DNA of 64,000 bases from a bacterium (GCA_030697645.1 JAUYPI010000006.1:76017-140016), one strand, 5' to 3'. Positions 5,968-59,390 are shown, counted from the stretch's first letter. Program-made: numbers and translations. Notes: generated from the letters alone by a model not told the origin.

Positions 5968-5997
5968 CTCAACGTTCCAAGTGAGAGATTTAAGGGT

Positions 5998-6652: not shown

Positions 6653-6656
6653 AAAC

Positions 6657-11390: not shown

Positions 11391-11526
11391 TTACTAATCA
11401 ATATCTAAACGATCTGAATTATGGGGCTAGAATTATGAATCATGGGGGTTTTGAATGGTGAAAATTCAAACAAGTATACGCGACCATAATTCATGATTCC
11501 TACTTCTTAATTCACCGTGACCAATC

Positions 11527-13732: not shown

Positions 13733-13786
13733 CTGATTTTGTACTAAAAACTCTTGCTTTTTTTAAATAGATATGGTATCCTTTTG

Positions 13787-13818
13787 TTGGATAGTTGGAT
13801 AGTTGGATAGTTGGATAG
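13787..13818. repeat. Tandem octamer repeat (TTGGATAG)x4
   Basis: Exact four-fold tandem repeat upstream of the 13865 gene. Confidence 0.8.
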
Positions 13819-13864
13819 GCGGGGTAAACCGCCGCACATTGACTTTCGAGAGAGGAGTGAGGTC

Positions 13865-20130: not shown

Positions 20131-20334
20131 ACCCGCGATGCGTTGACAGAATTATCAGAACGACCAAACGCCTCCCCGTGCGATATCGGGGAGGTGTTTG
20201 GGGGGTTTCTGTGCAACAATTTTTGCTAGAATCAGTTCAATTGTCGCTATGAGCAAAGATGTCGGGCGACCCCCGCCGTGCGAAAGCTCCAAGCTTCAAA
20301 AAACAAGCTCCAGTTCATGTAAATTCCAAGCTCC

Positions 20335-20470
20335 AACCAACAATTTCAAAACAAACTTCAAATTCCAATGCATCAAATCTCAAACACGTACGTCGTGTTT
20401 GGAAATTGGATTTTGAATATTGAGATTTGTTTGGAAATTGTTGGTTGGAAATTGGAGCTTCGTCGTGGTG
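20335..20470. repeat. Intergenic k-mer palindromic element (ttggaaatt family), long imperfect inverted repeat centred on cacgtacgtcgtg
   Basis: caaacttcaaattccaatgcatcaaatctcaaacacg | cgtgtttggaaattggattttgaatattgagatttgtttggaaattg. Shares an exact 21-mer with the element at 59359-59379 (reverse complement). Confidence 0.7.
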
Positions 20471-22531: not shown

Positions 22532-23275
22532 ATGCAACCGGACGTCGAGGACAGTTATTTGGTGAAAACGGTCGGTTTTGAAGGACCGCTCGACCTCCTG
22601 CTTACTTTAATCGAGGATCGAAAACTTTCGATCAGCGAGGTTGCCTTGGCTTCCGTGGCGGATGCATACACGGCACATGTACGGGCCCTAGAGCGTGTAC
22701 CGGTGGGCGAGACCGCGCAGTTCGTGCTCACCGCTGCAACACTCCTCCTCATAAAGTCGCGCTCGCTCTTGCCGACGCTCGATTTCACGAGCGAGGAAGA
22801 AGGCGACATTCGCGATCTCGAAGAGCGGCTGCGGCGGCTCGCTGTCCTGCGCGAGTCGGCGCGAGAGCTCGCTCGTTTGGCGGCAGGTCCGGCGCTCTAT
22901 GCGCGTCGTGCTCGCGTTGAGCCGATTCCGATTTTTGCGCCCGGAAGTCGGCTCACCATGGCGGTTATTGTCGAGACTGTCCAGGGCATCGTGAGTTCGG
23001 TGTCGTCCGAGGCGTCTCGTATCCCGGAGACTCTTGTACGCCGGACGGTACACCTAGAAGAAGTGGTGCGCACGCTCGCCGAGCGGATCGAGCGTGCGTT
23101 TGCAGTGAGTTTTTCCGACATCAGAGCGGCATCACGGGACCGGCTTGATCTTATAGTAAGCTTCCTCGCGTTGCTTGAACTCGTGAGGCGCGGCGGGGTA
23201 GCTGCCGCGCAGGAAGCGCCGTTTGCGGACATTACCATTGAAGGCGATCACGTGGGCGTGCCAAGGTACGACTAA
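22532..23275 (+). CDS. scpA: Segregation and condensation protein A
   Basis: FEGPLDLLLTLIEDRKLSISEVALASVADAY. About 247 aa. Confidence 0.7.
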   Translation: MQPDVEDSYLVKTVGFEGPLDLLLTLIEDRKLSISEVALASVADAYTAHVRALERVPVGETAQFVLTAATLLLIKSRSLLPTLDFTSEEEGDIRDLEERLRRLAVLRESARELARLAAGPALYARRARVEPIPIFAPGSRLTMAVIVETVQGIVSSVSSEASRIPETLVRRTVHLEEVVRTLAERIERAFAVSFSDIRAASRDRLDLIVSFLALLELVRRGGVAAAQEAPFADITIEGDHVGVPRYD

Positions 23276-23280
23276 CGAAT

Positions 23281-23317
23281 TTCAAATTTTCAAGTGACCA
23301 ATTTCCAACAGGGCGTC
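23281..23317. repeat. Short copy of the ttggaaatt-family element immediately after the scpA stop
   Basis: cgaatttcaaattttcaagtgaccaatttccaacagg matches 55957-55993 at 31/37. Confidence 0.6.
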
Positions 23318-28840: not shown

Positions 28841-29350
28841 TTAAGCCGGGTTATTGCTACGGCGTCTTTTCCGCGTCACATATGTTGGTTGGCGTTCGTG
28901 AATCCCGCTGCGGCGGTTCATGTCTCGTGCCAGCGCAAACATAAGGCACGCCAACTGGTCCATGTAGAATGCCACGATGGTGGGGTTGTCGAGATAGCCC
29001 ACAGTTTTCCGCTCAACCGCCCGTGCCTGAGTTCGCACGCAATGGAGCACGCATGAGCCCGTCGTGCCTTCGGGAATGAGAAAGTGGTCAAGCGGTTCTA
29101 ACGTAGACTCAATACCATACGTTTCCTTTTGCAAGTCGAACACGCGTTCTTTCTGCAGAGCCGGTGTGCTATTGGGGCACACCACTCCTGCTTGCAAGAC
29201 AAATAGATCATTTTGGATAGCAGTGAAGAGTTTTACATCTTTTCTCCTTTTCATCAACGACTTTGCCAGGCCGACCAACGAATTCAGGTGGTCGAGTTCT
29301 CCCAAAAGCTCGTTCTTTTCTTCGTCCAGATTGAGGTTGGTCACCGGCAC
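28841..29350 (-). CDS. ATP:cob(I)alamin adenosyltransferase, PduO type (Cob_adeno_trans family)
   Basis: DLFVLQAGV...FLIPEGTTGSCVLHCVRTQARAVER matches the PduO-type FILPGG...LH.ART..RRAER signature. Confidence 0.55.
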   Translation of the reverse strand: MPVTNLNLDEEKNELLGELDHLNSLVGLAKSLMKRRKDVKLFTAIQNDLFVLQAGVVCPNSTPALQKERVFDLQKETYGIESTLEPLDHFLIPEGTTGSCVLHCVRTQARAVERKTVGYLDNPTIVAFYMDQLACLMFALARDMNRRSGIHERQPTYVTRKRRRSNNPA

Positions 29351-29404: not shown

Positions 29405-29618
29405 TTTGTAATAAAAATCAACAACAGAATAAATATCTGTCCCGTATGGGTTAGGTGAGCACCTTGTCGGATGGCAGGTTGCTGGAGCGTCATCGGGCCT
29501 ATTCCCTCGGCTCACTCTTGATACTTATTCTGTTATAAATGTACCTGATACAAATGTACCAAAACGTATATCGCGCCGGCAATGTTTAGTAGTTTTAGGA
29601 AACAATAAAATCAAACTG

Positions 29619-31989: not shown

Positions 31990-32016
31990 GATGAGGCCCC
32001 ATCCATAAATAATTTC

Positions 32017-32222
32017 GGATCACACGCAAAAGCACTGGTAGTCCGTCATTACGAGCGAACGTAGCCGAAGCCGCGATGCGCGGGCGCGGCGGGAAGCAAC
32101 CCAGAGTATAGTCACCGTATGTCAGAGTCGAGAGAATTGTAGGTCATCCCCCTGGATTGCTTCGCTCCGCTCGCAAAGACCTACGCCGCCGGCCTCCTTA
32201 CCGGTGCTTTTGCGTGTGATCC
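32017..32222. mobile_element. MITE-like element: perfect 19-bp terminal inverted repeats, flanked by 8-bp direct repeat ATAATTTC
   Basis: TIR ggatcacacgcaaaagcac (32017-32035) and gtgcttttgcgtgtgatcc (32204-32222). ATAATTTC at 32009-32016 and 32223-32230. The interior holds further imperfect palindromes. No transposase. Confidence 0.55.
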
Positions 32223-32327
32223 ATAATTTCCCCATCTCGCACTCACTGCACGCCCTTATGCGGCTCGTGCTCAATCGCGAAATCCCTTTCGTTCCCGATC
32301 GGGTCTCGGATTCGCTCATTCCGCGTC

Positions 32328-32393
32328 AAGCTGCATCAGGCCATGCTATTCAGCACAATATGAGTGAACTTATGTATGGACGCACGATAACGT
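32328..32393 (+). repeat. Conserved ~65-bp upstream element, copy 1 (5' of rarA)
   Basis: caagctgcatcaggccatgctattcagcacaatatgagtgaacttatgtatggacg is about 75% identical to 52078-52143, upstream of atpG. Confidence 0.5.
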
Positions 32394-32431
32394 GATAACG
32401 CGTGCGGTGCGTTTATGGTACCATCCCCTCC

Positions 32432-37554: not shown

Positions 37555-37770
37555 GTATACTACACTTTGATAATAGACCTCTCACAACACAAAACACAAA
37601 CAAAGCACAAATCCAAAAGCCACAAAACACAAACACGTAGTGCAACCGTTTTGGTTTTGGAATTTGTGTTTTGATGTTTTGTTTGTGCTTTGTAATTTTG
37701 GCTTTGGGCTTTCGTTTGTTTTGTTTCGAATTTCGCTATTCAAATTTGTGCTTTTTACAAGCTAACAGCC
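37555..37770. repeat. Intergenic k-mer palindromic element (caaaacacaaa / tttgtgttttg family)
   Basis: caaaacacaaacaaagcacaaatccaaaagccacaaaacacaaacacg...cgttttggttttggaatttgtgttttgatgttttgtttgtgctttg: arms built from the same k-mers in opposite orientation. Confidence 0.65.
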
Positions 37771-37775
37771 ATAAG

Positions 37776-39347
37776 CTACGAGCTCGCATGGTGCCCCAGC
37801 GCCGCGCGGATTTTGCGCTTGGCGAGGCCGGTTTTCACAAAGGCGAGCCACTTCCGCGTCGGCCGGGCGAATTCTCGGGTCTCGATCTCGACGATGTCGC
37901 CGTTGTGAAGTGCGGTGTCAAGTGAGACAAGCTTACCATTTACTTTGACGCCCGAGGCGTGGTCTCCGATTTCAGAGTGAATTGCATAGGCGAAGTCAAG
38001 GGGCCCGGCGCCAAGCGGCAGATCAACCACGTCGCCCTGCGGCGTGAAGACGAACACGCGGTGACTGAAGAAATCGGCTCGGAGGTGCTCGAGAAATTCT
38101 TTCGGGTCGCTGACGTCGGCTTGCGCCTCCGCGAGCTCGCGGAGCCACTCAGGGGTCGCGGGGCTCGCTACGGCGAGCGACGGTTCGTTCGCGCGCGCGT
38201 TTTGGAACCAGTAGCGGTATGAGAGGCGCTGTCCGATCCACGCGAGATGCGTGAGAAGCGAGCGGCTGTCGCCGCCTTCCTTGTAGAGAAAGTGCGAGGC
38301 GATCCCGTATTCCGCTCTCCGATGCATCTCCTCGGTGCGGATTTGAATCTCGACAACGCCGCCGCCCCCTGTGAAGATCGTGGTGTGGAGTGAGCGATAG
38401 CCGTTCGGCTTCGGGAACGCGATGTAGTCTTTGATGCGCCCCGGGAGCGGCCGCCATGTTTTGTGGACAATCCCGAGCGCGCGGTAGCAGTCCTCAACCG
38501 TGGGTACGATGATCCGGAGCGCTGAGATGTCGTACACTTTGTTGATATCCATGTCTTTGCGCTCGAGCTTGCGAAAGAGGGAATAGAGCCCCTTCAGCCG
38601 GAATGACGTCTGTGCCTCGCGGATGCCATCGAGCGCGAGATTTTTTTGGAGCGTCCGATGCACCCCTCTGAGGTGTGCTGCGGTTTCGGCGTCTTTTTCC
38701 TTGAGCAGCGCCGTTACGTGCTCGTACTCTTTCGGGTAGACGAAGGGAAAGGCGAGGTCCTCGAGGTCGCGGTTCAGCGCCCGCATGCCGAGGCGGTAAG
38801 CGAGCGGCGCGTAGATCTCGAGCGTCTCCTCGGCGATGCGTCGGCGTTTGTGTGCCGGCACATGCTCGAGCGTTTGCATGTTGTGCAGGCGATCCGCGAA
38901 CTTGATGATGAGGACGCGGATATCGCGCGCGACCGCGACAAAGAGCTTGCGCAGGCTCTCGACGTGGCGCGTCAGGCCGCGGTATTTGAGGGTCCCGAGC
39001 TTCGTGACCCCTTCAACGAGCGAGAGTATCTCGTCGCCAAATTCCGCGCGTACATCCTCAGCGGTCGCCGGCGTGTCCTCGATCACGTCGTGGAGGAGCC
39101 CCGCGGCGATCGTCTTCGCGCCCATGCCGAACTCGGCGAGTGTCTTTGCCACGGCAAAGACATGCGTGAAGTACGGCTCGCCAGAGAAACGCAGATGTCC
39201 CTCATGCGAGCGCTCCGCAAACCCGTAGGCCTTCTCAATGAGCGCGACGTCGTCTTTCGACGGTTCGCGTATGAGGGAAGTTATGTCCTTGACAGATGGC
39301 ATAGGGGCAGCACACTCATGTAACATTTGACATGTAACATTTGACAC
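37776..39347 (-). CDS. rel: Bifunctional (p)ppGpp synthetase/hydrolase (RelA/SpoT family)
   Basis: HD hydrolase motif GLLHDVIEDT. Synthetase domain RIKDYIAFPKPNGYRSLHT. TGS region. 523 aa (no ACT domain). Confidence 0.85.
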   Translation of the reverse strand: MSNVTCQMLHECAAPMPSVKDITSLIREPSKDDVALIEKAYGFAERSHEGHLRFSGEPYFTHVFAVAKTLAEFGMGAKTIAAGLLHDVIEDTPATAEDVRAEFGDEILSLVEGVTKLGTLKYRGLTRHVESLRKLFVAVARDIRVLIIKFADRLHNMQTLEHVPAHKRRRIAEETLEIYAPLAYRLGMRALNRDLEDLAFPFVYPKEYEHVTALLKEKDAETAAHLRGVHRTLQKNLALDGIREAQTSFRLKGLYSLFRKLERKDMDINKVYDISALRIIVPTVEDCYRALGIVHKTWRPLPGRIKDYIAFPKPNGYRSLHTTIFTGGGGVVEIQIRTEEMHRRAEYGIASHFLYKEGGDSRSLLTHLAWIGQRLSYRYWFQNARANEPSLAVASPATPEWLRELAEAQADVSDPKEFLEHLRADFFSHRVFVFTPQGDVVDLPLGAGPLDFAYAIHSEIGDHASGVKVNGKLVSLDTALHNGDIVEIETREFARPTRKWLAFVKTGLAKRKIRAALGHHASS

Positions 39348-39400
39348 GACGACGGGCGTTCTAGGTCAAATGTCAACGGTCAATTGTCAAATGTTCGACC
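39300..39400. repeat. Intergenic k-mer palindromic element (catgtaacatttgaca family)
   Basis: catgtaacatttgacatgtaacatttgacacgacgacgggcg...ggtcaaatgtcaacggtcaattgtcaaatgttcg. Overlaps the rel start codon. Confidence 0.55.
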
Positions 39401-39419: not shown

Positions 39420-41705
39420 TTATTGCTCGTTGCCTGTTGCTCGTCCGCCCGGCCGGTGATTTGCACACTCTTTATTACTGCAGCGCTCAGGAATGGTTTT
39501 CGTCCCCTCCATCATGAGTGAGCCGCAGAGGGGGCAGATGCGGCCGGTTGGTTTTGCTTTGATTGCATGTTTGCACGCGGGGTAGTTTGAACAGCCGTAG
39601 AAGAGTCCGAATTTCCCGCGCCGCTCCGCCATCTCGCCCTTGCCGCATTTTGGACAAGGAACGCCCGTGCTTGTCGCTTGCTGCGTGCTGCTTGCCGCCT
39701 TTTTAATATACTTGCACTTCGGATACTTGCCGCACCCAACAAACTTTCCAAATTTTCCATCGCGTTCGACAAGCGCGCCGCCGCACTCGGGGCAGCGCTC
39801 GCCGGTCTCCTGGGGCGGCTTCACCTCCTCGCCGTGCTCCGACCGCGCGCCTTCGCATTCGGGAAACCTGCTACAGCTCATGAACGTGCCGGAGCGGCTG
39901 AGCTTCATCACCATGGCGCTCCCGCAGGTCGGGCAGCGAAATTGCTTTGGTGCGGGACCGAGATCCGTGAGCCGCGGGACGTTCTGTCTTGCCGCGACGT
40001 CCTTGCTAAACGGCGTGTAGAAATCGGCAAGCGTCTTGGCATACTCGCGCGCTCCGCGCGCGATATCGTCGAGTTCATCCTCCATCTTCGAGGTGAAGGT
40101 ATCGCTTATGTAGGAGGCAAAATTTTTCTCGAGGAACGTGCTTACGACATCGCCCATCGCGGTGGGCTTCAGTGACCGGCCTTCTTTCTCGACGTATTCG
40201 CGATCCTGGATCGTCTTGATGATGGAGGCGTATGTCGAAGGCCTGCCGATGCCGCGTTTTTCAAGTTCCTTCACGAGCCCCGCTTCGCTGTAGCGTGGCG
40301 GGGGCTGCGTTTGTTTGCCCTCGCTCTCGAGCGAGCGGAGAGTGAGTGGTTCCTCGCGAGCGACTTTCGGAAGCTCGATGTCCTCGCCGCGCGAGGCCGG
40401 GTCCGCGGCGAGCCAGCCGTCAAATTTTGTGCGGGAGCCAATGGCAGAAAATGCGGGAACGTCTTTTGCTTCTATGGGTACTGCGACGCGCGCCGTAATT
40501 TTCGTCTTGATGAGCTCGGCCGCGGCCATCTGGCTTGCGAGCGTACGTGCGCGGATCAGCGCGTAGAGGCGTTTTTGCTCTTCGGTAGCGCCTGCGGATG
40601 CGCGCGTGATGTCCGTCGGACGGATCGCCTCGTGCGCTTCCTGCGCGCTTTTGCTCGTGGTTTTATACTGTCGCAGCGTGACATACCGCTCGCCGAATTT
40701 CTTGGTGACAGCTGCGCCGATTGAGCTCCGGGCTTCCTCTGCGAGCGTCGTCGAATCGGTGCGCATGTAGGTGATGTGCCCCTGCTCATAGAGCTGCTGC
40801 GCAGTGCGCATGGTGCGCGCCGGGGAGAAGCCGAGCCGCGAGCTTGCGGCCTGCTGGAGGGTCGAGGTCGTGAACGGAGAGCGCGGGGCCCGAGACGTTT
40901 CCGTCTCGAGTACCTCGGCGACAATCCAGCTGCCGCTGCGGCCGACTTTGAGTATTCGCTCCGCCTCCTCGCGGGTCTTTGGCTCCTCGACGCACACGAG
41001 CGTCATGCCACTCCCTTTTTTTGTCGCACAGAGCGCGGTGAGCACCCAGTAGTTCTCCGGCACGAACGCGCGGATCTCTCGCTCGCGCTCGACGAGAATA
41101 CGCAGGGCAGGGGACTGCACTCGGCCTGCCGAGAGCCCGTAGCGGAGCTTCTTCCAGAGTAGGCCCGAGAGGTCGTAGCCGACGAGGCGGTCGAGGACTC
41201 TGCGCGCCTCCTGCGCCCTGACGAGCCGCTCGTCAATATCTCGCGGATGCGCGAGCGCTTCTTTCACTGCGCGCTCCGTAATTTCGTGGAAGACCACACG
41301 TTTAACGTTTGGAATTTGGAATTTGGAATTTGGAATTTGTTTGGAGCTTGTTTTTTGGAATTTGGAATTTCCGAGGCCGAGCGCCTCGGCGACGTGCCAC
41401 GCGATCGCCTCGCCCTCTCGATCCGGGTCGGTCGCAAGCAGCACTTCGTCCGCTTTTTTTGCTGCAGCTTTGAGATCGGCGATAACTTTTGTTTTCTCCG
41501 GGATGATTTCGTAGTGCGGCGCGAATCCGTGCGCAATGTCCACCGCGTTTTCATTCTTCTTCGGCAGATCACGCACATGGCCCACCGAGGCCTTGACGCT
41601 GTAGCCCGGCCCCAGGTATTTGCTGATCGTTTTCGATTTTGCAGGAGATTCGACGATGACGAGTTTCATACGAGCAGTATGCAGCGTGCAGCAGGCAGTA
41701 AGCAA
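39420..41705 (-). CDS. topA: DNA topoisomerase I with C-terminal zinc ribbons; contains an in-frame repeat-derived insertion
   Basis: Toprim MKLVIVESPAKSKTISKYLG. Active-site region. C-terminal CPTCGS/CPECGG/CPKCGKG/CPLCGS zinc fingers. Confidence 0.85.
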   Translation of the reverse strand: MLTACCTLHTARMKLVIVESPAKSKTISKYLGPGYSVKASVGHVRDLPKKNENAVDIAHGFAPHYEIIPEKTKVIADLKAAAKKADEVLLATDPDREGEAIAWHVAEALGLGNSKFQKTSSKQIPNSKFQIPNVKRVVFHEITERAVKEALAHPRDIDERLVRAQEARRVLDRLVGYDLSGLLWKKLRYGLSAGRVQSPALRILVEREREIRAFVPENYWVLTALCATKKGSGMTLVCVEEPKTREEAERILKVGRSGSWIVAEVLETETSRAPRSPFTTSTLQQAASSRLGFSPARTMRTAQQLYEQGHITYMRTDSTTLAEEARSSIGAAVTKKFGERYVTLRQYKTTSKSAQEAHEAIRPTDITRASAGATEEQKRLYALIRARTLASQMAAAELIKTKITARVAVPIEAKDVPAFSAIGSRTKFDGWLAADPASRGEDIELPKVAREEPLTLRSLESEGKQTQPPPRYSEAGLVKELEKRGIGRPSTYASIIKTIQDREYVEKEGRSLKPTAMGDVVSTFLEKNFASYISDTFTSKMEDELDDIARGAREYAKTLADFYTPFSKDVAARQNVPRLTDLGPAPKQFRCPTCGSAMVMKLSRSGTFMSCSRFPECEGARSEHGEEVKPPQETGERCPECGGALVERDGKFGKFVGCGKYPKCKYIKKAASSTQQATSTGVPCPKCGKGEMAERRGKFGLFYGCSNYPACKHAIKAKPTGRICPLCGSLMMEGTKTIPERCSNKECANHRPGGRATGNEQ
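41306..41372. repeat. ttggaattt-family k-mer repeat inserted in frame inside topA
   Basis: gtttggaatttggaatttggaatttggaatttgtttggagcttgttttttggaatttggaatttcc, coding GNSKFQKTSSKQIPNSKFQIPNVK on the minus strand. Confidence 0.65.
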
Positions 41706-41841
41706 GCGTCGTGTGCTTGCTGCATGCTGCTAATCGCTTGCTGCTTGTAACAATTACTACAGTTCCTTCGCCTTGGCAAATAAATAAAGTCTCCGACCAC
41801 AGACGTTTGTGATCGGAGACGCATATACGGAAGTCGCTGGT

Positions 41842-43134: not shown

Positions 43135-43265
43135 TACGAATGTCAAAGTTCAAAACGCAAGCAAAGTCAAAAGTCAAAACGCAAAAGTCAAAACCGCAGC
43201 CTCAAAGTCAAAAGTTTGAAAGGTTTTAGGCTGTGGTTTTGAGCTTTGACTTTTGCGTTTTGACT
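43135..43265. repeat. Intergenic k-mer palindromic element (gtcaaaagtcaaaacgcaaa family) forming a long hairpin
   Basis: gtcaaaacgcaaaagtcaaaaccgcagcctcaaag...aggctgtggttttgagctttgacttttgcgttttgac. Confidence 0.65.
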
Positions 43266-43277
43266 TGGCTTGTAGCA

Positions 43278-44099
43278 ATGCTCAGGATTATAGCGCGCGC
43301 CTGTACCGTCTTTACCATGCTATTTCACTTTAATGCTATTGTCGCCATTGCCTTCCGCGACCTCACGAAGCTCTTTCGAGACCGAATCCGTCTCGTGGCT
43401 TCATTTGTGTTCCCGTTCATGTTTATCGGGGTCCTTGGTGGCGGGCTCAATGCGAGCTTCGGCGATCGGCTCGGGTTTCAATTTTTGCCGTTTGTGTTTG
43501 TTGGCGTTCTCGCGCAGACGATGTTCCAGTCCTCTGCCGCGGGCGTGATCTCTCTCATCCGCGACCGTGAGACAGACTTCAGCAAGGAGCTTTTCGTGGC
43601 ACCGATTTCTCGCTACGGCATCGTGCTTGGAAAAATCATCGGGGAATCGCTCGTCTCGCTCACGCAGGGAGTGGGTATTGTCGCGTTCGGGCTCATTATC
43701 GGTGTGCCGATTACACTCGCCGCGCTCGCCGCGATGGCGCCGGTTGCGTTCATTTCGGCGCTTTTTGGCGGCGCGTTCGGCATACTCGTGCTCGGCAACG
43801 TCCGCGAGCAGCGCACAACTGCTCAGCTCTTCCCATTTCTCATCTTCCCGCAGTTCATCCTCGCCGGCGTTTTCAACCCAATCAAGGATCTGCCTCCGGT
43901 GGCCGCGTGGCTCTCGCGGATCACGCCGATGACCTACCCCGTTGATCTCATGCGCGGCGTGTTCTACTCGGGCAGTACCGAGAGAGTCTTTGCAGTAAGC
44001 AGGCACCCACTCGCAAATATCACAATCATCGTCGTGCTGTTCGGAGTGTTTCTTCTCCTCGGCACGTGGCTTTTTGTCAGGAAGGAGAGAGAACGATGA
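43278..44099 (+). CDS. ABC-2 type transporter permease
   Basis: Six TM helices. Start at ATG 43278, after the palindromic element. Confidence 0.6.
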   Translation: MLRIIARACTVFTMLFHFNAIVAIAFRDLTKLFRDRIRLVASFVFPFMFIGVLGGGLNASFGDRLGFQFLPFVFVGVLAQTMFQSSAAGVISLIRDRETDFSKELFVAPISRYGIVLGKIIGESLVSLTQGVGIVAFGLIIGVPITLAALAAMAPVAFISALFGGAFGILVLGNVREQRTTAQLFPFLIFPQFILAGVFNPIKDLPPVAAWLSRITPMTYPVDLMRGVFYSGSTERVFAVSRHPLANITIIVVLFGVFLLLGTWLFVRKERER

Positions 44100-44184
44100 C
44101 AGAGGACGCGCCTGCACGAAATCAGAAGCACGAAGCTCGAAATCCGAAACAATATCGAAATCACTGCCTGCGGCAGGCAGGCAA

Positions 44185-45204
44185 ATGCTCAAAACAAAAA
44201 TGCAAAAATTAAAATTACAATTCAATATGCAAAATGTGCTTATTGTTGGCCTCTCGTTCGGTGTGGTCGTCTTGCTCGTGGTGACTGCCCGCGCGGAGCA
44301 CCAACGCAGAAAAGAGGTGCTCCTCCAAAAGAGTACGGCGCTTGAGAGCGTGGTTGCTACAACGACCCTCCCGAGTCCTTTTTCCTCTCTCGCGCTTGAT
44401 GCGCGCGCGGCGATTGTCTGGGACGTCGCTCTAGCCCGTCCGCTCTACAGCCGAAATGCCGACGCACAGCTGCCGCTTGCCTCGCTCACGAAGCTCATGA
44501 CCGTGCTTCTCGCGCATGAGCGTATATCGCCTCCGGTGACACTCACCATCGCGCCGTCCGCTCTCGCACCTGAGGGCGACAACGGGCTTTTCCCGGAGGA
44601 AGAGTGGCGGCTACGCGACCTCATAGGCTATACCTTGATCGTTTCCTCAAATGACGGTGCGCGAGCGCTTGCGGCTGCCGCGGGTAGCGTGGGCGGCATG
44701 GTGAGCGGGCCGTCGTCCGAGAGCAAGGCACTCGAGACATTCGTTACGGCAATGAATGAGCGCGCGATAGAGCTCGGGCTTACGCAAACGTACTTTCTCA
44801 ACGAGAGTGGGCTCGACACCTCCGAGGCGGTGAGCGGGGGATACGGATCCGCGCATGACGTTGCGCGGCTCCTCGCCGAAGCGCTCCATGAGATTCCAGC
44901 GGAGCTCGAAATGACACGCACGAAAGCTCTTGCCGTGCGCTCGCTCTCCGGCGTGGTACACGACGCGGAGAACACCAATGAGGTGGTAAACCGCATTCCG
45001 GCTTTGATCGGCGGCAAAACAGGCTACACCGATCTTGCGGGAGGAAACCTCGCCATCGTCTTTGATGCGGGGTTCGCACGGCCAATCGCCGTCGTCGTCC
45101 TGGGCTCAACACAGGCCGGGCGGTTTAGCGACGTCGAGCGGCTTGTGTGGGCGACGCTGGAGTATCTCAAAGTGTGCACCGCAGAACAAACGATATGCAT
45201 ATAA
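44185..45204 (+). CDS. D-alanyl-D-alanine carboxypeptidase (serine-type, PBP5/6 family)
   Basis: SxxK ASLTK. SxN VSSND. KTG GGKTGYTDLAGGN. N-terminal signal anchor. Start uncertain (44185, 44200 or 44227). Confidence 0.7.
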   Translation: MLKTKMQKLKLQFNMQNVLIVGLSFGVVVLLVVTARAEHQRRKEVLLQKSTALESVVATTTLPSPFSSLALDARAAIVWDVALARPLYSRNADAQLPLASLTKLMTVLLAHERISPPVTLTIAPSALAPEGDNGLFPEEEWRLRDLIGYTLIVSSNDGARALAAAAGSVGGMVSGPSSESKALETFVTAMNERAIELGLTQTYFLNESGLDTSEAVSGGYGSAHDVARLLAEALHEIPAELEMTRTKALAVRSLSGVVHDAENTNEVVNRIPALIGGKTGYTDLAGGNLAIVFDAGFARPIAVVVLGSTQAGRFSDVERLVWATLEYLKVCTAEQTICI

Positions 45205-45224
45205 TCCCCGTCAGGGGCATAGGT

Positions 45225-45370
45225 CACCCGCATTAATTTTCAATTTTGCAATTTTCAATGAATTTTCAATGTGTCAATGACTCAATGGCGGACGACGTCG
45301 TGTTTGAAAATTGTGTCATTGCAAAATTGATTGAAAATTGAAAATTGAACATTGGAAATTTCTGACTCAA
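45225..45370. repeat. Intergenic k-mer palindromic element (caaaattgaaaattg family), copy flanking mraY upstream
   Basis: Shares an exact 24-mer cattgcaaaattgattgaaaattg (45317-45340) and the core cgtgtttgaaaattg with the copy at 46486-46650. Confidence 0.7.
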
Positions 45371-45414
45371 ATGGCCACTGATCTCTGGTCTTTCATGCTT
45401 ACTCTTTTGCCCTT

Positions 45415-46485
45415 ATGATAATAAATGTAGCTAAAGTCTTCCTTCCCGCCACCATTGCTTTCGCGATCGGTGTCGTGTTCGCGCCGCTCCTGGCACACTA
45501 CTTATACCGCTTTCGCATGTGGAAGAAGAGTGCGAAAGCGGTAGCGCTCGACGGCCGTGGTACGCCGATCTTTCACTCGCTCCACCGCGATAGGGAAACA
45601 TCGACGCCGAAACTTGGCGGCATCGTGATCTGGGGAAGCACGCTTGTGACAGTACTTCTCATCAGAATTGCCGAAGACGTCATTCCCTCAGCGCTCACGG
45701 CAAAACTTGAGTTCCTCAGTCGTTCGCAGACGTGGCTGCCACTCGTAACACTCCTCGTGGGGGCAACCATCGGTTTTATAGACGACATGCTTGATGTGCG
45801 GGGAGGCGGAAAGTACCTCGCTGGTGGACTTTCGCTCCGGATGCGGCTCGGTATCGTTGCTTTGACCGGACTCATCGGTGGGTGGTGGTTTTTCACGAAA
45901 CTTGGAGTCTCAAGCATCATAGTGCCGTTTGCCGGTGAGGTGATACTCGGCTGGCTCCTCGTGCCGCTCTTCATCATCGTTCTGCTCGCGATCTACTCAG
46001 GCGGCGTCATTGATGGTATTGATGGCCTTGCCGGCGGGGTGTTTGCGGCGATATTCGGCGCGTATGGTGGCATCGCGTTTTTTCAAAACCAGATTGACCT
46101 CGCGGCATTCTCGGCGGTCGTCGTTGGCGGCATTCTTGCTTTTCTCTGGTTTAACATTCCACCTGCTCGATTCTATATGTCCGAGACAGGCACCATGGGG
46201 CTTACCATGACGCTCGCGGTCGTCGCATTTCTCACCAAGGCCGTCGTCGTCTTGCCCATAATCGCTTTTCCGCTGCTTGCCACAACCGCCTCGGACGTGA
46301 TCCAGCTCGCTTCAAAGCGCTTCCGCGGAGGGAGAAAGGTGTTCCTTATCGCGCCAGTGCACCACCACTTCGAAGCCCTCGGCTGGCCGCCGTACAAAGT
46401 GACGATGCGTTACTGGGTGATTTCGGTCATCTGCGCGCTCCTTGGCATGATCGTGGCCCTCGTGGGGAACCAGGTCACGCTTTGA
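45415..46485 (+). CDS. mraY: Phospho-N-acetylmuramoyl-pentapeptide transferase
   Basis: Polytopic membrane protein with a DD-containing cytoplasmic loop IDDMLDVRGG and HHHFE. Confidence 0.85.
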   Translation: MIINVAKVFLPATIAFAIGVVFAPLLAHYLYRFRMWKKSAKAVALDGRGTPIFHSLHRDRETSTPKLGGIVIWGSTLVTVLLIRIAEDVIPSALTAKLEFLSRSQTWLPLVTLLVGATIGFIDDMLDVRGGGKYLAGGLSLRMRLGIVALTGLIGGWWFFTKLGVSSIIVPFAGEVILGWLLVPLFIIVLLAIYSGGVIDGIDGLAGGVFAAIFGAYGGIAFFQNQIDLAAFSAVVVGGILAFLWFNIPPARFYMSETGTMGLTMTLAVVAFLTKAVVVLPIIAFPLLATTASDVIQLASKRFRGGRKVFLIAPVHHHFEALGWPPYKVTMRYWVISVICALLGMIVALVGNQVTL

Positions 46486-46650
46486 ATTTTCAATTTTCAA
46501 TGCTCAATTTTCAATAAATTTTCAATCCGCCAGCTGGCGGACCCAATGGCTCAATGACGAATCACGGACGAACGTCAGCGTGTTTGAAAATTGATTCATT
46601 GCAAAATTGATTGAAAATTGGAAAATTGATAATTGAAAATTCAGACTCGA
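46486..46650. repeat. Intergenic k-mer palindromic element (caaaattgaaaattg family), copy flanking mraY downstream
   Basis: 24-mer cattgcaaaattgattgaaaattg at 46597-46620. Arms gaattttcaattttcaatgctcaattttcaat / attgaaaattggaaaattgataattgaaaattc. Confidence 0.7.
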
Positions 46651-46707
46651 TATTTTACGTTTTACGCACAGCAGTTTTGGTGTTTTGAATCTTATCGAGT
46701 CCACTTT

Positions 46708-47814
46708 ATGCCCCGTCTCACCTTCGCCAAACCCGACTCTTTTTTCATCGCGATTCTTGTCTCGCTTACGCTCGCGGGCTTTTTCATATTTATTTCGGCT
46801 TCCCTCGGGCTTCTCGCGCGAGGAGGTGCTCCATTTGGAGCGGCGATAGTAAAGCAGCTTCTGCTCGGCATCGTAGTTGGTGGTGGGTGTTCTCTCGCCG
46901 CCACATACACCCCCTACGAGCGTTGGCGCAGATACTCCCCCTGGCTTTTTTTGGCCGCGCTTATTATCACCGCCCTCGTGTTTGTGCCCGGCGTCGGCTT
47001 TGAGCACGGCGGCGCACGGCGATGGATCGCCGTCGGCCCGCTGTCTTTTCAACCGGCAGAATTTTTGAAGTTCGCGTTCGTGCTCTACGCTGCGGCGTGG
47101 CTCGCCGCCCTCGACGAGCGGGGCAGGAAAACGGCCTTTGCTATGCTGCCGGTCTTTCTTATGCTCGCGGCGGTGGGAACGCTGCTCATTGCACAGCCGA
47201 ATACGAGCACGCTCGTCGTTATCATCGTTGCGGTTGCAGGAATGTGTATCGTTGCCGGTGTGCGCGCGCGTGACCTTGCGGCGCTTGCGGGTGTCGCGGC
47301 TGTAGGTATTATCGCGCTCATCATGCTGCGCCCCTATCTCTACGAGAGAATTCAGACGTTCCTTGATCCGTCCCGCGACGCGCTCGGCGCAAGCTATCAG
47401 ATTCAACAGTCCCTGATCGCGGTCGGGAGCGGCGGCGTCTTTGGCCGCGGCTTCGGGCAGAGCGTGCAAAAATTTGAGTATCTCCCCGAACCGATCGGCG
47501 ATTCCATCTTTGCGGTCGCAGCCGAGGAGTTCGGTTTTATCGGCGCGCTCATTTTGATTCTACTTTTCCTCGCTCTCGCCCTGCGCGGATTTCGAATCGC
47601 GGCGCATGCACCGGACAATTTTGGCTCCCTCGTCGTTACCGGCTTCATCATCCTCATCGTTTCGCAGTCATTTATGAATATCGGCGCCATGCTCGCCGTC
47701 TTGCCGCTCACCGGCACGCCGCTTATTTTCGTTTCAAAGGGCGGTACCGCCCTCTTGTTCGCGCTCGCCGAAGCAGGCATAATTGTTAATGTGTCGAGAC
47801 GTGCGAGAGGGTAG
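46708..47814 (+). CDS. ftsW: SEDS-family peptidoglycan polymerase FtsW/RodA
   Basis: About 10 TM helices. Conserved PEPIGDSIFAV and GxSQ regions. Start at MPRLTFAKPDSFF. Confidence 0.75.
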   Translation: MPRLTFAKPDSFFIAILVSLTLAGFFIFISASLGLLARGGAPFGAAIVKQLLLGIVVGGGCSLAATYTPYERWRRYSPWLFLAALIITALVFVPGVGFEHGGARRWIAVGPLSFQPAEFLKFAFVLYAAAWLAALDERGRKTAFAMLPVFLMLAAVGTLLIAQPNTSTLVVIIVAVAGMCIVAGVRARDLAALAGVAAVGIIALIMLRPYLYERIQTFLDPSRDALGASYQIQQSLIAVGSGGVFGRGFGQSVQKFEYLPEPIGDSIFAVAAEEFGFIGALILILLFLALALRGFRIAAHAPDNFGSLVVTGFIILIVSQSFMNIGAMLAVLPLTGTPLIFVSKGGTALLFALAEAGIIVNVSRRARG

Positions 47815-47890
47815 AGGATAGAAAGTGGAGAGTGGATTTTTTACTCCCACACTCTACATTCTACTTTCCACTCTCTACTTTCCACTTTCC
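47815..47890. repeat. Intergenic k-mer palindromic element (ggaaagtgg / ccactttcc family)
   Basis: agaaagtggagagtggatttttt actcccacactctacattctactttccactctctactttccactttcc. Confidence 0.55.
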
Positions 47891-47894
47891 AACC

Positions 47895-49034
47895 ATGAAA
47901 ATTTTATTCACCGGCGGCGGTACTGGCGGGCACTTTTATCCCATTGTAGCTATTGCGGAGGAGATAGACCGTCTCGTCGAAGAGCGCAAGCTCGTCGGCG
48001 TCGAGAAGCACTACATGGCTGCGGAGTCCTATGACGCAGGCCTCCTCCTCGAGCGTGATATCACTTTTCACCACGTGAGTGCGGGCAAAGTGCGGGCGTA
48101 CTTTTCGCCTCTCAATTTCCTCGACATTTTTAAGACTACTGCTGGGCTGCTTCGGGCGATCGTGCGGCTCTACTTTCTTTTTCCCGACATTATCTTCGGC
48201 AAAGGAGGCAGCGAGAGCTTCCCCGCGCTTTTTGCGGCGCGTGTTCTTGGTATTCCAGTGATGATTCACGAATCCGATACCGTGCCGGGAAGGGTCAACC
48301 GCTGGGCAGCGAAGTTCGCGCTTCGCATCGGACTCGGCTTTCCCGAGGCAGCAGCGCATTTCAAAACGATAGATAAGAAAAAAATCGCGCACACCGGCAT
48401 CCCGGTGCGGCGCGAGCTCTTTCACCCCGAGCGCGAGGGCGCACAGGAGTTTCTGCACCTTGAAGCCGGTATTCCTGTGCTTCTCGTCCTCGGTGGCTCG
48501 CAGGGCGCTATGGCGCTGAATGAGCGCGTACTCGACGCCCTGCCGCGTCTTGTCGAGCACTATCAGGTGATCCATCAGACGGGCACGGCAAACATTGAAG
48601 AGTGTACGCGCCTTGCCGCGCTTGTGCTTGAGGGAAGCGAGCAGAGGACGCGCTATCATCCATTCGGCTTTTTCAAAACGCTTGCGCTGAAACAGGCCGC
48701 CGGGGCAGCCGATCTCCTGCTCTGCCGCGCTGGCGCGACAACGATTGCAGAGGCGGCGCTCTGGGGCCTGCCTGCGATCGTCGTGCCGCTCCCGAGAGCC
48801 AAAGGCGACCATCAGCGCGAGAATGCCTTTGCCTATGCCCGCACCGGCGCTGCGGTCGTGATCGAGGAGGCGAATCTAACCAGCACGATTCTCCTTCAGG
48901 AAACTGACCGACTGATGGGCAATGTCACCGAACGTGAACGCATGCGGAATGCTGCGCGTGCCTTCGCCCGTCCCGACGCCGCCTCGCTCATCGCGGACGA
49001 GCTCCTCCGCCTTGGCCTCAAGCACGAAGGGTAA
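47895..49034 (+). CDS. murG: UDP-N-acetylglucosamine--N-acetylmuramyl-(pentapeptide) pyrophosphoryl-undecaprenol N-acetylglucosamine transferase
   Basis: GGGTGGHFYPIVA N-terminal G-loop and a C-terminal GT-B domain. Confidence 0.8.
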   Translation: MKILFTGGGTGGHFYPIVAIAEEIDRLVEERKLVGVEKHYMAAESYDAGLLLERDITFHHVSAGKVRAYFSPLNFLDIFKTTAGLLRAIVRLYFLFPDIIFGKGGSESFPALFAARVLGIPVMIHESDTVPGRVNRWAAKFALRIGLGFPEAAAHFKTIDKKKIAHTGIPVRRELFHPEREGAQEFLHLEAGIPVLLVLGGSQGAMALNERVLDALPRLVEHYQVIHQTGTANIEECTRLAALVLEGSEQRTRYHPFGFFKTLALKQAAGAADLLLCRAGATTIAEAALWGLPAIVVPLPRAKGDHQRENAFAYARTGAAVVIEEANLTSTILLQETDRLMGNVTERERMRNAARAFARPDAASLIADELLRLGLKHEG

Positions 49035-49039
49035 TTTTT

Positions 49040-49130
49040 GATAACGACGGGTTTTGGAATTTTACTTGTTGTTTTACGTTGTTGTTTTGCGCTTTTCGTT
49101 TTGCGTTTTGCATTTTCTGATATAGAGTCA
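49040..49130. repeat. k-mer low-complexity tract (gttttgcg/ttgttttac units) upstream of tRNA-Glu
   Basis: ttttacttgttgttttacgttgttgttttgcgcttttcgttttgcgttttgc. Confidence 0.4.
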
Positions 49131-49137
49131 ATCTCAC

Positions 49138-49209
49138 GGCCCTATCGTCTAATGGCCAGGACGCTACCCTCTCACGGTAGAAATCGGGGTTCGACTCCCC
49201 GTAGGGTCA
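49138..49209 (+). tRNA. tRNA-Glu (anticodon CTC)
   Basis: Acceptor GGCCCTA/TAGGGTC (one G-U). D-loop TCTAATGGCCAGGAC typical of tRNA-Glu. Anticodon stem CTACC/GGTAG with loop CTCTCAC. T-arm GGGGTTCGACTCCCC. Confidence 0.7.
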
Positions 49210-49288
49210 TTGCGGAGAAAACAAATATGTGCTACCATTTTCTTGGTGAACGGCTCTTTGTTTTTGTGTTGAAGGAAAAAAGGAGTAA

Positions 49289-50341
49289 GTGATGCCTCGT
49301 GTAGCAATTTTTGGTTGCGGGGACGCGGGAGAACTAAATTTTTGTGGGCTTAAACTCGCAGGATTTGACCCCGTTGTACTATGTGATGAGGACCCGAGTG
49401 TTCTCCAGAAAACACACTGGGCTCCTAAAAACGTCGCCCGATGTACTACAAAAAATGTAGGTACGATTTATGGGAGTGAGGACGTCGATCTCGTCGTCGT
49501 TGGAACGCCTGACCATACTCACCTTCCTGTCGCCAGTGCTGCACTAGCGGCTGGAAAATACGTATGGGTTGAGAAGCCACTCGCAACGGCAACCCAAGAC
49601 ATAGAAATGTTTGCGCATCTCGCGCACACATATCCTGGCAGGCTGCTCTTCAGCGAGACATTCACCTATCAAGCGCAGATCCAAGCAACAATACTGAATC
49701 TCGGCGAACTTGGTGGTCTACAGGGGGGGCAAACGTCATACACGATGTGGAACTGCGACCGCATTATGGGTGGCGGCAAGTGGCGCACAGAAACCCGTTA
49801 CAACCCCTGCGCCGGCGGCCTCAGCCATAACTTCATGGTACTGCGGTTACTTGCGGCATCGCCTTTCGTGCGCGTGTGCAGCCGAGGCCAGGTTCTCACA
49901 TATCACGAGCTCGGGAAACACGGCGGTTTTGATACCATGCACGGACTGCTCGAGACCGCTGCCGGACAGCTCTTTTCGTGGTACATCTGCCTTGCGACTA
50001 AAGGACCGAATAGCCCGATGGCGCACAGGACAGCGCACTTTATGCTCCAGTTTGAGTGCGGTGCGCTCATCTACGGCCATGAACCAGAGCACGACCGGCT
50101 CATCGTCAATGGAGAAAGTGCCTACTTCGCCCAGGAGGCGGAGGCGGTGTCGTGGCGCAGCTACTACAAGGAGATATGCTACCGCCGGATGCATGAAGAC
50201 ACTCTCAGGGCGATGCGTGGTGAACCAACGTTACATACTATCTGGCACGGCATTAATGTTGCAGCTGCCTGTGCCTCTGCTTTTGAATCTGCCCACCAAA
50301 ACGGCATCTGGCTCGATATTCCACAAGTATTGCAAGGGTAA
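49289..50341 (+). CDS. Gfo/Idh/MocA-family NAD(P)-dependent oxidoreductase
   Basis: N-terminal Rossmann VAIFGCGDAG...LVVVGTPDHTHLPVASAALAAGKYVWVEKP. Confidence 0.6.
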   Translation: MMPRVAIFGCGDAGELNFCGLKLAGFDPVVLCDEDPSVLQKTHWAPKNVARCTTKNVGTIYGSEDVDLVVVGTPDHTHLPVASAALAAGKYVWVEKPLATATQDIEMFAHLAHTYPGRLLFSETFTYQAQIQATILNLGELGGLQGGQTSYTMWNCDRIMGGGKWRTETRYNPCAGGLSHNFMVLRLLAASPFVRVCSRGQVLTYHELGKHGGFDTMHGLLETAAGQLFSWYICLATKGPNSPMAHRTAHFMLQFECGALIYGHEPEHDRLIVNGESAYFAQEAEAVSWRSYYKEICYRRMHEDTLRAMRGEPTLHTIWHGINVAAACASAFESAHQNGIWLDIPQVLQG

Positions 50342-54559: not shown

Positions 54560-55951
<1,392 letters not shown>

Positions 55952-55956
55952 CGAAT

Positions 55957-56064
55957 TTCCAATTTCCAAGTGGTCAATTTCCAAGCAAATTTCAAATGCT
56001 CAAATCTCAAATTAAACTTCGTACTTCGGATTTTGTACATCGGATGTCAGCGTCGGCAATTTTT
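55957..56064. repeat. ttggaaatt-family element after the atpD stop, plus copy 1 of a 24-bp repeat (acatcggatgtcagcgtcggcaatt)
   Basis: cgaatttccaatttccaagtggtcaatttccaagcaaatttcaaatgctcaaatctcaaatt. 56041-56064 matches 62938-62961. Confidence 0.6.
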
Positions 56065-59305: not shown

Positions 59306-59319
59306 ACGCGCATAACGAA

Positions 59320-59390
59320 TTTCCAAATTCCAAAAAACCCGTCTCCAAACACGACGTGCGTGTTTGAGATTTGATGCATTTTTCGCTTTA
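59320..59390. repeat. ttggaaatt-family element after the M23 peptidase stop; contains the exact 21-mer reverse-complement match to 20368-20388
   Basis: cgaatttccaaattccaaaaaacccgtctccaaacacgacgtgcgtgtttgagatttgatgcat. 59359-59379 is the reverse complement of atgcatcaaatctcaaacacg. Confidence 0.7.

Follow-up and report, generated by a model that had tools for sequence, protein, structure and literature searches.

Related AT-rich palindromes on both sides of mraY and a candidate repeat family of Parcubacteria

Two homologous palindromes around mraY

The DNA analysed here is a stretch of 64,000 nucleotides (nt) from a bacterial genome (GCA_030697645.1, JAUYPI010000006.1:76017-140016), referred to below as the window and numbered from its first letter, in which two long AT-rich palindromes, elements A and B, bracket the cell-wall gene mraY. 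Element A follows an S11 D-Ala-D-Ala carboxypeptidase gene (dacC-like; 44227-45204, + strand; Pfam PF00768, E 8e-33) and precedes mraY (45415-46485, + strand; PF00953), and element B lies between mraY and ftsW (46708-47814, + strand; PF01098, E 1e-89), the start of which is 62 nt past the end of B. The murG gene begins at 47895, and an ABC transporter pair and topA lie upstream of this dac-mraY-ftsW-murG series. The starts given for the carboxypeptidase gene, ftsW (ATG at 46708) and murG follow the gene calls of a second public assembly of the same organism (L001); other gene calls in the window, like those in loci retrieved by sequence pattern, are longest open reading frame (ORF) picks, with stop-codon distances measured by hand. 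Homologues of the MraY protein are named phospho-N-acetylmuramoyl-pentapeptide-transferase and carry organism names such as Parcubacteria and Paceibacterota. The Pfam matches agree with the identities given to the carboxypeptidase, mraY and ftsW genes in an earlier note, made by a model from the sequence alone, which had also described the two spacers around mraY as homologous palindromes.

Element A (45232-45362; GC 0.29) is an imperfect palindrome composed of a left arm (45232-45286), a centre (45287-45306, GGCGGACGACGTCGTGTTTG) and a right arm (45307-45362), and element B (46483-46645; GC 0.34) is a longer copy of it; palindromes are given without a strand here and below. The two elements are 131-163 nt long, with 29-34% GC against 55% for the window. 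The palindromes do lie where the earlier note had placed them, with adjusted limits: the true spacers run from 45205 to 45414 and from 46486 to 46707, and B extends over ~163 nt, not the 140 that had been allotted to it. The palindrome of B opens with the TGA stop codon of mraY itself (46483-46485; TGAATTTTC...GAAAATTCA). MraY ends in NQVTL, compared with NQVTF in a homologue of 88% identity, a conservation which indicates that the end of the gene is unchanged despite its overlap with B.

Both elements are near-complete palindromes built from short units of 7-11 nt (spaced 7, 8 or 11 nt apart in A and B), with the left-arm units ending in CAAT and their mirror units in the right arm beginning with ATTG. 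The unit AATTTTCAAT occurs 11 times in the window, always within 45235-45346 and 46485-46641 (0.18 expected and a maximum of 2 in shuffled sequence), on the + strand in the left halves of A and B and on the - strand in the right halves, in keeping with the earlier description of arms made of k-mers on one side and their complement on the other. Between the arms lies a GC-richer centre (centre sequence CAAACACGACGTCGTGTTTG) with the consensus CAAACACG-ACGT-CGTGTTTG, which is a perfect palindrome in the best-preserved relatives; in A and B the right half of the centre, CGTGTTTGAAAATTG, is intact and the left half is degraded. Typical elements have the ends GAATTTTCAAT...ATTGAAAATTC.

Local alignment joins 45221-45368 to 46472-46648 with 135 matches, 10 mismatches and 35 gap columns (93% identity ungapped, 75% over all columns), so that the homology proposed in the earlier note is upheld. 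The gap columns consist of insertions or deletions (indels) of whole units, together with a GC-rich mini-palindrome that is extra in B; this mini-palindrome, CCGCCAGCTGGCGG (46527-46540), is predicted to form a side hairpin within the left arm of B, is not in A and is unique in the window. The most similar tract (45299-45348 and its partner 46579-46629, + strand; 51 nt, 94% identity) takes in the inner part of the right arm as well as the centre's right half, and within it lies the exact 24-mer already remarked upon, CATTGCAAAATTGATTGAAAATTG, which has two occurrences in the window (45317-45340 and 46597-46620) where 0 are expected.

Each element is predicted to fold into a long hairpin, of ~49 bp in A and ~68 bp in B with loops of about 4-10 nt, and the folds of both RNA (-40.9 kcal/mol, z -3.2 for A; -60.2 kcal/mol, z -6.2 for B) and single-stranded DNA (z -3.8 and -5.0, respectively) bear out the hairpins foreseen from the arms. 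The second public assembly is 100% identical over window positions 43301-49291, and a short-read Logan contig (L002) breaks inside A and again inside B. Since A and B are identical in the second assembly, they are not assembly artefacts, and they behave as repeats in assembly.

A dispersed repeat family and its turnover

Scanning metagenomes with the centre pattern returned 97 stretches, which comprised chance hits in coding DNA, an unrelated high-copy repeat of one GC-rich organism and ~25 true relatives of A and B. Some of these relatives have AATTTTCAAT/ATTTACAAT arms and lie in contigs of 36-45% GC, and several contigs hold multiple copies. From 14 of the copies in other metagenome contigs, with no window sequence included, a profile was made (R1; its E-values, from a short calibration, are rough), and it recovered three strong matches in the window, namely A (76.2 bits, E 2e-8), B (64.4 bits, E 1e-6) and a third element, C (20325-20456; 61.6 bits, E 2e-6), along with two weak ones, and besides these three nothing scored better than E 0.03. 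A and B are members of the family by this profile, and R1 had no match in control (chance-hit) loci or in more distant relatives. Among the metagenome contigs, R1 detected four copies within 13.9 kb (L058) and three within 10.8 kb (L085), and the one host checked, that of L085, is parcubacterial by its RsmI homologues. The genes beside copies are mutually unrelated (rsmI, DUF4015, histidine kinases, a MacB/FtsX permease, an ECF sigma factor and a TrwB-like ATPase), and no transposase domain was found in 10 genes flanking copies.

On this evidence we lean towards regarding A and B as two close copies of a non-coding, AT-rich, foldback-type interspersed repeat that has spread in a section of the Parcubacteria (Paceibacteria). 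The family appears undescribed, and a literature search of limited coverage found no description of such repeats in Parcubacteria or Patescibacteria. The earlier note had offered two readings, regulation or the footprint of a small mobile element, and the mobile or repeated element is the better of them: a multi-copy family does exist in other spacers and in other Parcubacteria and is absent from these spacers in more distant relatives, but neither a target-site duplication nor a transposase was found. No sign of a viral origin was found: four pattern matches in IMG/VR had no R1 support and a phage collection gave no blastn match.

A ~150-nt high-copy repeat with five consecutive hairpins was also encountered, in metagenomes Ga0073934/Ga0209172 (GC about 0.65), mostly at contig ends, where it breaks assemblies. 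Its loci are L013, L015, L021, L022, L025, L029, L033, L034, L037-L039, L043-L045, L054, L056, L057, L066, L068, L079, L081-L084, L087-L089, L091, L092, L101 and L105, and its hairpins are TGAACAAGCC...GGCTTGTTCA, GCAAAGCGAAAA...TTTTCGCTCTGC, CCAATTTTCAAACAC-CTGC-GTGTTTGAAAATTG, CCCGGCC...GGCCGG and GGGAACCTCTGA...TCAGAGGTTCCC. The 14-nt stem of the third hairpin equals the centre stem of A and B, an identity partly forced by the search pattern.

Relatives with MraY identities of 85-88% carry hairpins in both mraY spacers, with arms unrelated to those of A and B. At 88% (L003/4/5) the long dac-mraY hairpin consists of AGCTTTTAGCT units and the long mraY-downstream hairpin of AAGTCAAAA units, and at 85% (L115) both spacers hold long hairpins of the same AAAGCG/AAAGTG type, which resemble each other. 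The combination of identical gene order and unrelated spacers, which the earlier note had named as evidence against a conserved function, is therefore present in these relatives; it argues against a conserved sequence-specific function and not against mobility. No family member lies beside mraY in five lineages at 70-74% MraY identity, in which spacers are compact on one or both sides of the gene. The dac-mraY and mraY-downstream spacers measure 16 and 256 nt in L120 (74%; the latter with a different 33-bp hairpin), 34 and 25 nt in L121 (70%) and 96 and 44 nt in L122 (70%; next gene not ftsW), and L006 (73%) and L008 (71%) have an extra ORF between dac and mraY and only 4 and 36 nt, respectively, downstream of mraY. 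Hairpins at 85-88% and no family member at 70-74% point to a gain within the 85%-or-closer clade, with positions kept and sequence replaced. Elements in the rsmI neighbourhood of L085, a lower-GC lineage, are present in genomes with at least 96% RsmI identity to L085 and absent in relatives at 73-74%, one of which has spacers of 13 and 30 nt.

Hairpin types also recur at non-orthologous sites. The ftsW-murG spacer of L003 holds a TTTCCAA-type element, and a type with AGCT units occupies the dac-mraY spacer in L003 and the ftsW-murG spacer in L121. In the latter genome, a 70% relative, the hairpin lies at 6215-6290 and is made of AGCTTATAGCTTTTAGCTGTTAGG units, so that hairpin types recur at different spacers of the cluster in different genomes. 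Among the 122 loci fetched (~1 Mb), CCGCCAGCTGGCGG occurs in L001, the same genome, and in L120, again just downstream of mraY, and nowhere else; it is probably the relic of an older small hairpin behind mraY. The hairpin behind mraY in L120 (1283-1401) is a perfect 33-bp inverted repeat (CCCACAGAGGATAACACGGGTAAATTTTTCACT...) that encloses the mini-palindrome TCCGCCAGCTGGCGGA, which is also found inside B (46526-46541) and in no other place in the 122 loci. L008 carries two ~90-nt GC-richer palindromes (1221-1310 and 15441-15530; CGTCATTGCGAGAGCGAAGC...GCTTCGCTCTCGCAATGACG) of a different repeat family, and the AT-rich family is absent from that genome.

Comparison of individual copies gave some indication of how they change. 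Between three samples of the 88% relative, identity reaches 99.95% and the hairpins are essentially unchanged, the sole difference within a hairpin being a single-base indel downstream of murG. In orthologous copies the centre is kept and arm units are gained, lost or reshuffled (D versus L003 14966; L058a versus L099). An identical 68-nt arm plus centre is common to the rsmI-upstream element of L085 and the rsmI-downstream element of L109, and the true orthologues of these elements differ in that tract. The identity of A and B, 93%, exceeds the about 83% at which the window's coding DNA matches that of L003, the nearest available relative. We conclude that neighbouring copies exchange sequence and that A and B are in the same situation as the rsmI-flanking pair. 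Two weak hints suggest that B is the older and that A was recently copied from it: the A/B homology reaches AGGTCAC upstream, which at B is conserved mraY coding sequence (p about 0.09 with free local flank alignment), and B alone carries CCGCCAGCTGGCGG. Rearrangement breakpoints that separate closely related genomes were seen at element edges, L108 (about 3580) and L109 (about 3590) diverging directly after the rsmI-downstream element. Opposite the element at 10440-10571 in L085, L109 has a 1.5-kb insert with two genes (232-1741).

The hairpin scan of the window found the same architecture in many other spacers. Element C (20305-20460), upstream of rnhB, has TTTCCAA/TTGGAAA arms around a perfect centre (CAAACACG-TACGT-CGTGTTTG) and folds more stably than any other 140-nt segment of the window (z -6.2). 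Element D (59313-59385), a copy that is short or has been truncated, follows immediately on the stop codon of the M23 peptidase gene; at its centre, CAAACACG-ACGTG-CGTGTTTG is in the opposite orientation to the centre of C, a 38-nt core is common to the two with 1 mismatch, and its R1 match is weak (27.9 bits, E 0.14). A solo left arm of C type (TAACGAATTTCCAATTTCCAAG...; 55950-56020, + strand; R1 32.7 bits, E 0.03) starts at the atpD stop codon, and an arm fragment, TAACGAATTTCAAATTTTCAAGTGACCAATTTCCAAC (23274-23310, + strand), lies directly after the stop codon of scpA, where the orthologous site in L076 has nested hairpins of other types.

Window spacers also hold long low-complexity hairpins whose sequence is of another type, at least five in number. 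One with AAGTCAAAA units (43158-43272; 49-nt arms, 82% complementary) separates the ABC ATPase and permease genes and is ~81% identical overall, with a near-identical core, to the L003 mraY-ftsW hairpin at a non-orthologous site. Others have AGAAAGTGGAGAG units and fill the ftsW-murG spacer (47816-47894), have ACAAAACAC units and a centre containing CAAACACG between relA/spoT and dnaE (37589-37693), have CATTTGACATGTAA units between topA and relA/spoT (39317-39395), or are of another unit type (41669-41749). The half-centre CGTGTTTG is enriched in the window (10 occurrences against 2.3 expected), with 8 of the 10 in five hairpins (A, B, C, D and 37589-37693). As hairpins of the A/B architecture adjoin dnaE, relA, topA, atpD, scpA, rnhB and the ABC transporter pair, the earlier impression that such elements are unexpected in a dcw-type cluster does not stand for this lineage. 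A long hairpin of GAATTATG/GAATCATGG units with the apex GTTTTGAATGGTGAAAATTCAAAC (11410-11510) lies between the genes for a transketolase C-terminal half and a DUF84 NTPase, and a 412-nt divergent spacer (31990-32400) holds a GC-rich hairpin of ~220 nt (GGATCACACGCAAAAGCACTGGTAG...CCGGTGCTTTTGCGTGTGATCC) with no Rfam match.

Pfam scans of the ~60 window ORFs detected ordinary housekeeping genes and no transposase, integrase, Y1 enzyme (no PF01797 match) or Nop-domain protein. In an Rfam scan, the only known RNAs of the window were three or four tRNAs together with one SAM riboswitch, all of them away from A and B. The riboswitch (RF00162, 54 bits against a 44-bit cut-off; 29430-29527, - strand) is upstream of a gene (28841-29350) whose product belongs to the cobalamin adenosyltransferase family. 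At 9433-10368, an ORF with a HEPN domain at its N-terminus overlaps the following gene, for the transketolase C-terminal half, by 4 nt, and a fourfold tandem repeat, (GTTGGATA)x4 (13783-13816), with no inverted partner, lies upstream of and overlaps the start of the ORF at 13811-14539.

Gene position, folding and possible consequences

Copies start 0-57 nt past the stop codon of the upstream co-directional gene and end about 5-155 nt before the next start codon. The distance from stop codon to element is 27 nt for A, 0 nt for B, 0-8 nt in L085, 3-10 nt in L109 and 0-57 nt in L058, and none of the eight divergent spacers of the window holds an element. In L085 and L109 the order is stop codon, element, terminator (GC stem and T-run), -10 box, ribosome-binding site and next gene, which places the element in the 3' untranslated region (UTR) there, distinct from the terminator. 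The window uses ordinary terminators with a GC stem and a T-run elsewhere, and no U-tract terminator was found after A or B (terminator-like sites 6, against 6.6 expected). Given that no terminator-like site lies behind either element, both are probably intercistronic in a single dac-mraY-ftsW transcript. With 4 promoter-like sites and 2.3 +/- 1.6 expected from shuffles, there is no excess of such sites; a promoter-like TTGATA-17-GATATT is present in the right arm of B (46626-46654).

This promoter-like sequence, the very stable hairpins and the position of both elements immediately upstream of essential cell-wall genes would suit A as an attenuator or leader regulating mraY, and B as its duplicate regulating ftsW. 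We nevertheless find such a role hardly credible. Besides the missing U-tract and the unremarkable counts of terminator-like and promoter-like sites, neither element matches an Rfam covariance model at the gathering score (MIR6288, the only match, has 28 bits where the cut-off is 74), relatives at 85-88% MraY identity do not share the sequence at this locus, no family member lies by mraY at 70-74%, and copies flank unrelated genes. No evidence was found for the attenuation entertained in the earlier note, or for any other mraY- or dcw-specific regulation; nothing ties A or B to mraY control, and the comparative data suggest that a gene-specific attenuator can be regarded as effectively excluded.

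The stability of the hairpins must be read against their composition, since dinucleotide shuffles destroy the units and thereby exaggerate the significance of the fold. When units were permuted within arms, the observed order was the more stable in all 11 copies tested (z -0.1 to -3.4), with 30 of 200 permutations folding as well as A and 2 of 200 as well as B, and most of the folding energy survived. The hairpin is thus in large part a by-product of the arms, whose units are complementary to one another. R1 matches occur on either strand regardless of gene direction, and the folding and R1 strand tests gave no evidence of strand-specific RNA selection.

Indifference to strand, together with significant folds of single-stranded DNA, would also be compatible with a role at the DNA level, in which the CAAT/ATTG arrays and the centre serve as sites for a nucleoid-associated, partition or regulatory protein, or in which cruciforms organise the chromosome or its replication. 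Conservation of the unit sequence does not depend on pairing register, the consensus being clear and the common stem limited to 6 bp, and at the DNA level the centre forms a perfect palindrome that needs no loop. We consider this role highly improbable, as elements are missing from divergent (promoter-only) spacers, the unit spacing of 7-8 nt is not in helical phase, and the arm unit types differ wholly between neighbouring spacers and between relatives, which would be hard for one binding protein to accommodate. The centre is also unlike the parS consensus (TGTTNCACGTGAAACA) when the two are compared by eye.

If A and B are copies of an interspersed repeat, as we favour, such copies may persist as selfish or near-neutral DNA, tolerated only in 3' and intercistronic positions behind stop codons, where they would do the least harm. 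Copy-to-copy conversion would homogenise them, and one of A and B would recently have been copied onto the other across the 1.1 kb of mraY. Both would be transcribed as passengers in the dac-mraY-ftsW message and fold there into their ~49- and ~68-bp hairpins. The most likely consequence would be a form of operon punctuation, in which each hairpin offers a site for a double-strand-specific RNase and/or a barrier to 3' exonucleases, and this punctuation would give neighbouring cistrons different mRNA stabilities rather than attenuate mraY. Endonucleolytic processing and/or protection of upstream 3' ends are effects of REP, ERIC and Correia elements.

Several observations weigh against this account. 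Direct evidence on the spread of copies was not found: no target-site duplication is present at the inspected copies (A, B, L073, L085, L109 and L049), the available comparisons yielded no clean pair of empty and filled sites (L085 versus L109 being a 1.5-kb replacement), and no transposase, integrase or Y1 enzyme is encoded among the ~60 window ORFs. The A/B subtype is rare, its 28-nt pattern, GTTTGAAAATTGNNNCATTGCAAAATTG, having one fragment-like match in 596 Gb of species-representative genomes, in a Parcubacteria metagenome-assembled genome (L010) with weak R1 scores. Genomes ranging from 36-57% GC all show a recognisable family consensus, hairpins are retained in the mraY spacers of three lineages despite sequence replacement, and one orthologous copy shows 4 substitutions in about 125 nt beside a spacer of which part, with its terminator hairpin, is far more diverged; these three observations may mean host selection rather than mere tolerance. 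Concerning the proposed RNA consequence, RNAalifold found no compensatory pairs in the 14-copy sequence alignment, in which only a 6-bp apex stem is common, although repeated units make column-wise pairing unreliable, so that this covariation result neither supports nor excludes a selected structure. The sense strand is the more stable in 11 of 18 hairpins, with the strands about equal and the comparison not decisive.

A different explanation draws on several of these points, namely that the hairpins are host-selected RNA structures of the 3' UTR or intercistronic region, for which any stable hairpin suffices and whose sequence turns over by conversion. On this view the processing, stability or insulation of mRNA in this lineage would require a long hairpin behind certain genes, with both flanks of mraY among the sites. 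It would account for hairpins in the same spacers of the window and of the 85-88% relatives (dac-mraY, mraY-ftsW and, where sequenced, ftsW-murG, M23 and scpA), for their tight placement behind stop codons with none in divergent spacers, for the slowly changing orthologous copy beside a more diverged spacer part, for the survival of the consensus over a wide GC range and for the observed unit order beating unit shuffles in all 11 copies tested. It sits poorly with lineages at 70-74% MraY identity, which mostly manage with 4-44 nt spacers around mraY, and with truncated or solo-arm copies (55950, 23274, D and L016). Copies show no strand or orientation preference and no compensatory pairs, most of the folding energy comes from unit composition (30 of 200 shuffles equal A), and the canonical terminator, where present, is separate from the element. 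Host selection of this kind is a possibility that we take seriously but doubt.

[quoted passage not shown] The whole element is an inverted repeat, and terminal inverted repeats are present (TGAATTTTCAAT...ATTGAAAATTCA in B, with similar ones in L073 and L080): the ends GAATTTTCAAT/ATTGAAAATTC recur in these three copies and AACGAATTTCC in C-type copies. Copies are dispersed in either orientation, are absent from relatives and are of the same type at non-orthologous sites, and the repeated subterminal units resemble the multiple transposase-binding sites of foldback, Ac/Ds and En/Spm-type ends. What makes this origin quite improbable is that target-site duplications are lacking, that the centre is best conserved and the arms and ends vary, the reverse of the usual MITE pattern, and that no transposase is found in the window or beside copies. 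Moreover, the A/B homology continues ~10 nt beyond the palindrome on both sides, into mraY coding sequence at B. The sole Y1 transposase encountered (L113) is flanked by unrelated repeats, on a contig in which R1 found no family member. That locus (5840-6800) contains a 225-aa Y1 transposase gene (PF01797) with inverted GGGACAGCCACCATTT flanks followed by a (CCCATTGTT)n run, and looks like a RAYT- or IS200-like unit.

Rather unlikely, but with some hints in its favour, is a lineage-specific process that would set the elements apart from ordinary transposon relics, in which palindromes would be seeded at small hairpins already present behind genes, would grow outwards by fold-back (template-switch) copying and unit slippage and would then be homogenised by copy-to-copy conversion. 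The centre, CAAACACG-ACGT-CGTGTTTG, would be recognised by a hairpin-binding enzyme or by RNA processing, and the long hairpins would be used as operon punctuation. The hints are a centre that is conserved while arms turn over, nested hairpins, the lack of target duplications and the ancestral CCGCCAGCTGGCGG mini-hairpin behind mraY, now enclosed, in each of two lineages, by a different long inverted repeat.

Genomes of the Candidate Phyla Radiation are very small and gene-dense, and scarce non-coding DNA is expected of them. Many intergenic gaps of the window, between housekeeping genes and on either side of the essential mraY, are occupied by palindromes of 130-160 nt. Should the family prove as common as its metagenome matches indicate, it would make up a sizeable part of these genomes that has been overlooked, would in practice account for breaks in assemblies (contigs L001 and L002 each terminate at a hairpin or within one) and may give these organisms a means of expressing the genes of an operon at different levels. 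It is also a clean system in which to study how long palindromes originate, persist and are homogenised in bacteria whose DNA-repair equipment is reduced. Annotators are warned by it against taking such repeats, when they lie beside a conserved gene, for regulators of that gene.

Comparison with known systems

Several known classes of palindromic or repeated sequence were considered and set aside. Intrinsic terminators, short GC-rich stem-loops with a U-tract behind them, are likewise hairpins just past a stop codon and, being palindromic, read alike on either strand; in A and B the stems are ~50-70 bp long with 29-34% GC, and no U-tract follows. In integrons, each ORF of a variable set of cassettes is followed by an attC site, an imperfect palindrome whose ...AAC / GTT... 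ends are conserved, and an integron integrase is present; here core genes stand in conserved order, no integrase is encoded in the window, and the centre rather than the ends is conserved. A DNA-uptake sequence was rejected, as AATTTTCAAT occurs nowhere in the window outside A and B. TIGR arrays are tandem, lie beside a Tas (Nop-domain) gene and have box C/D loops and two spacers of 8-12 nt (PMC12045711; bioRxiv 10.64898/2026.09.09.750476). The present elements are dispersed singly, with loops of about 4-10 nt and no Nop-domain protein in the window.

Closer parallels exist among the intergenic repeats of other bacteria. ERIC/IRU sequences of Enterobacteria and Vibrio are imperfect palindromes of ~127 bp in transcribed intergenic regions of operons and can alter the stability of the flanking mRNA. 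A and B resemble them in being imperfect palindromes of similar size (131-163 bp) without coding capacity, in a family whose copy number and sites vary between related species. They differ in belonging to an unrelated phylum and in having arms of 7-11-nt units and a conserved palindromic centre; the likeness is one of function, and no sequence relationship is expected. Correia elements (CREE/NEMIS) of Neisseria, 100-155 bp long, are co-transcribed hairpins cleaved by RNase III, and they have terminal repeats of 26 bp, a target duplication of TA and a site for IHF. Here too hairpin-forming intergenic repeats are found at high density in a small genome and can carry promoter-like sequences, but the flanks of A and B were tested and are not TA duplications, and the centre rather than the ends is conserved.

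REPs act as stabilisers of mRNA 3' ends, and REP doublets form long hairpins. Like the present family, REP/BIME sequences are extragenic palindromes behind genes that make no target duplication and are homogenised within a genome. REP/BIME/REPIN elements associated with RAYT are 20-40 nt long, their 5' tetranucleotide is conserved, and they are paired with a Y1 transposase gene present in one copy (PMC2817692). Membership of that class was rejected for A and B, which measure 131-163 nt, contain repeated units and have no PF01797 match in the 64-kb window.

Eukaryotic foldback (FB-type) transposons, by contrast, are larger, make target-site duplications and in some copies contain coding sequence. 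The resemblance to them is architectural only, and lies in long inverted arms of short tandem sub-repeats, with little between the arms and with variable arm length. By analogy, the family would be closest to ERIC, Correia and REP/BIME elements in its behaviour and closest to eukaryotic foldback elements in its architecture.

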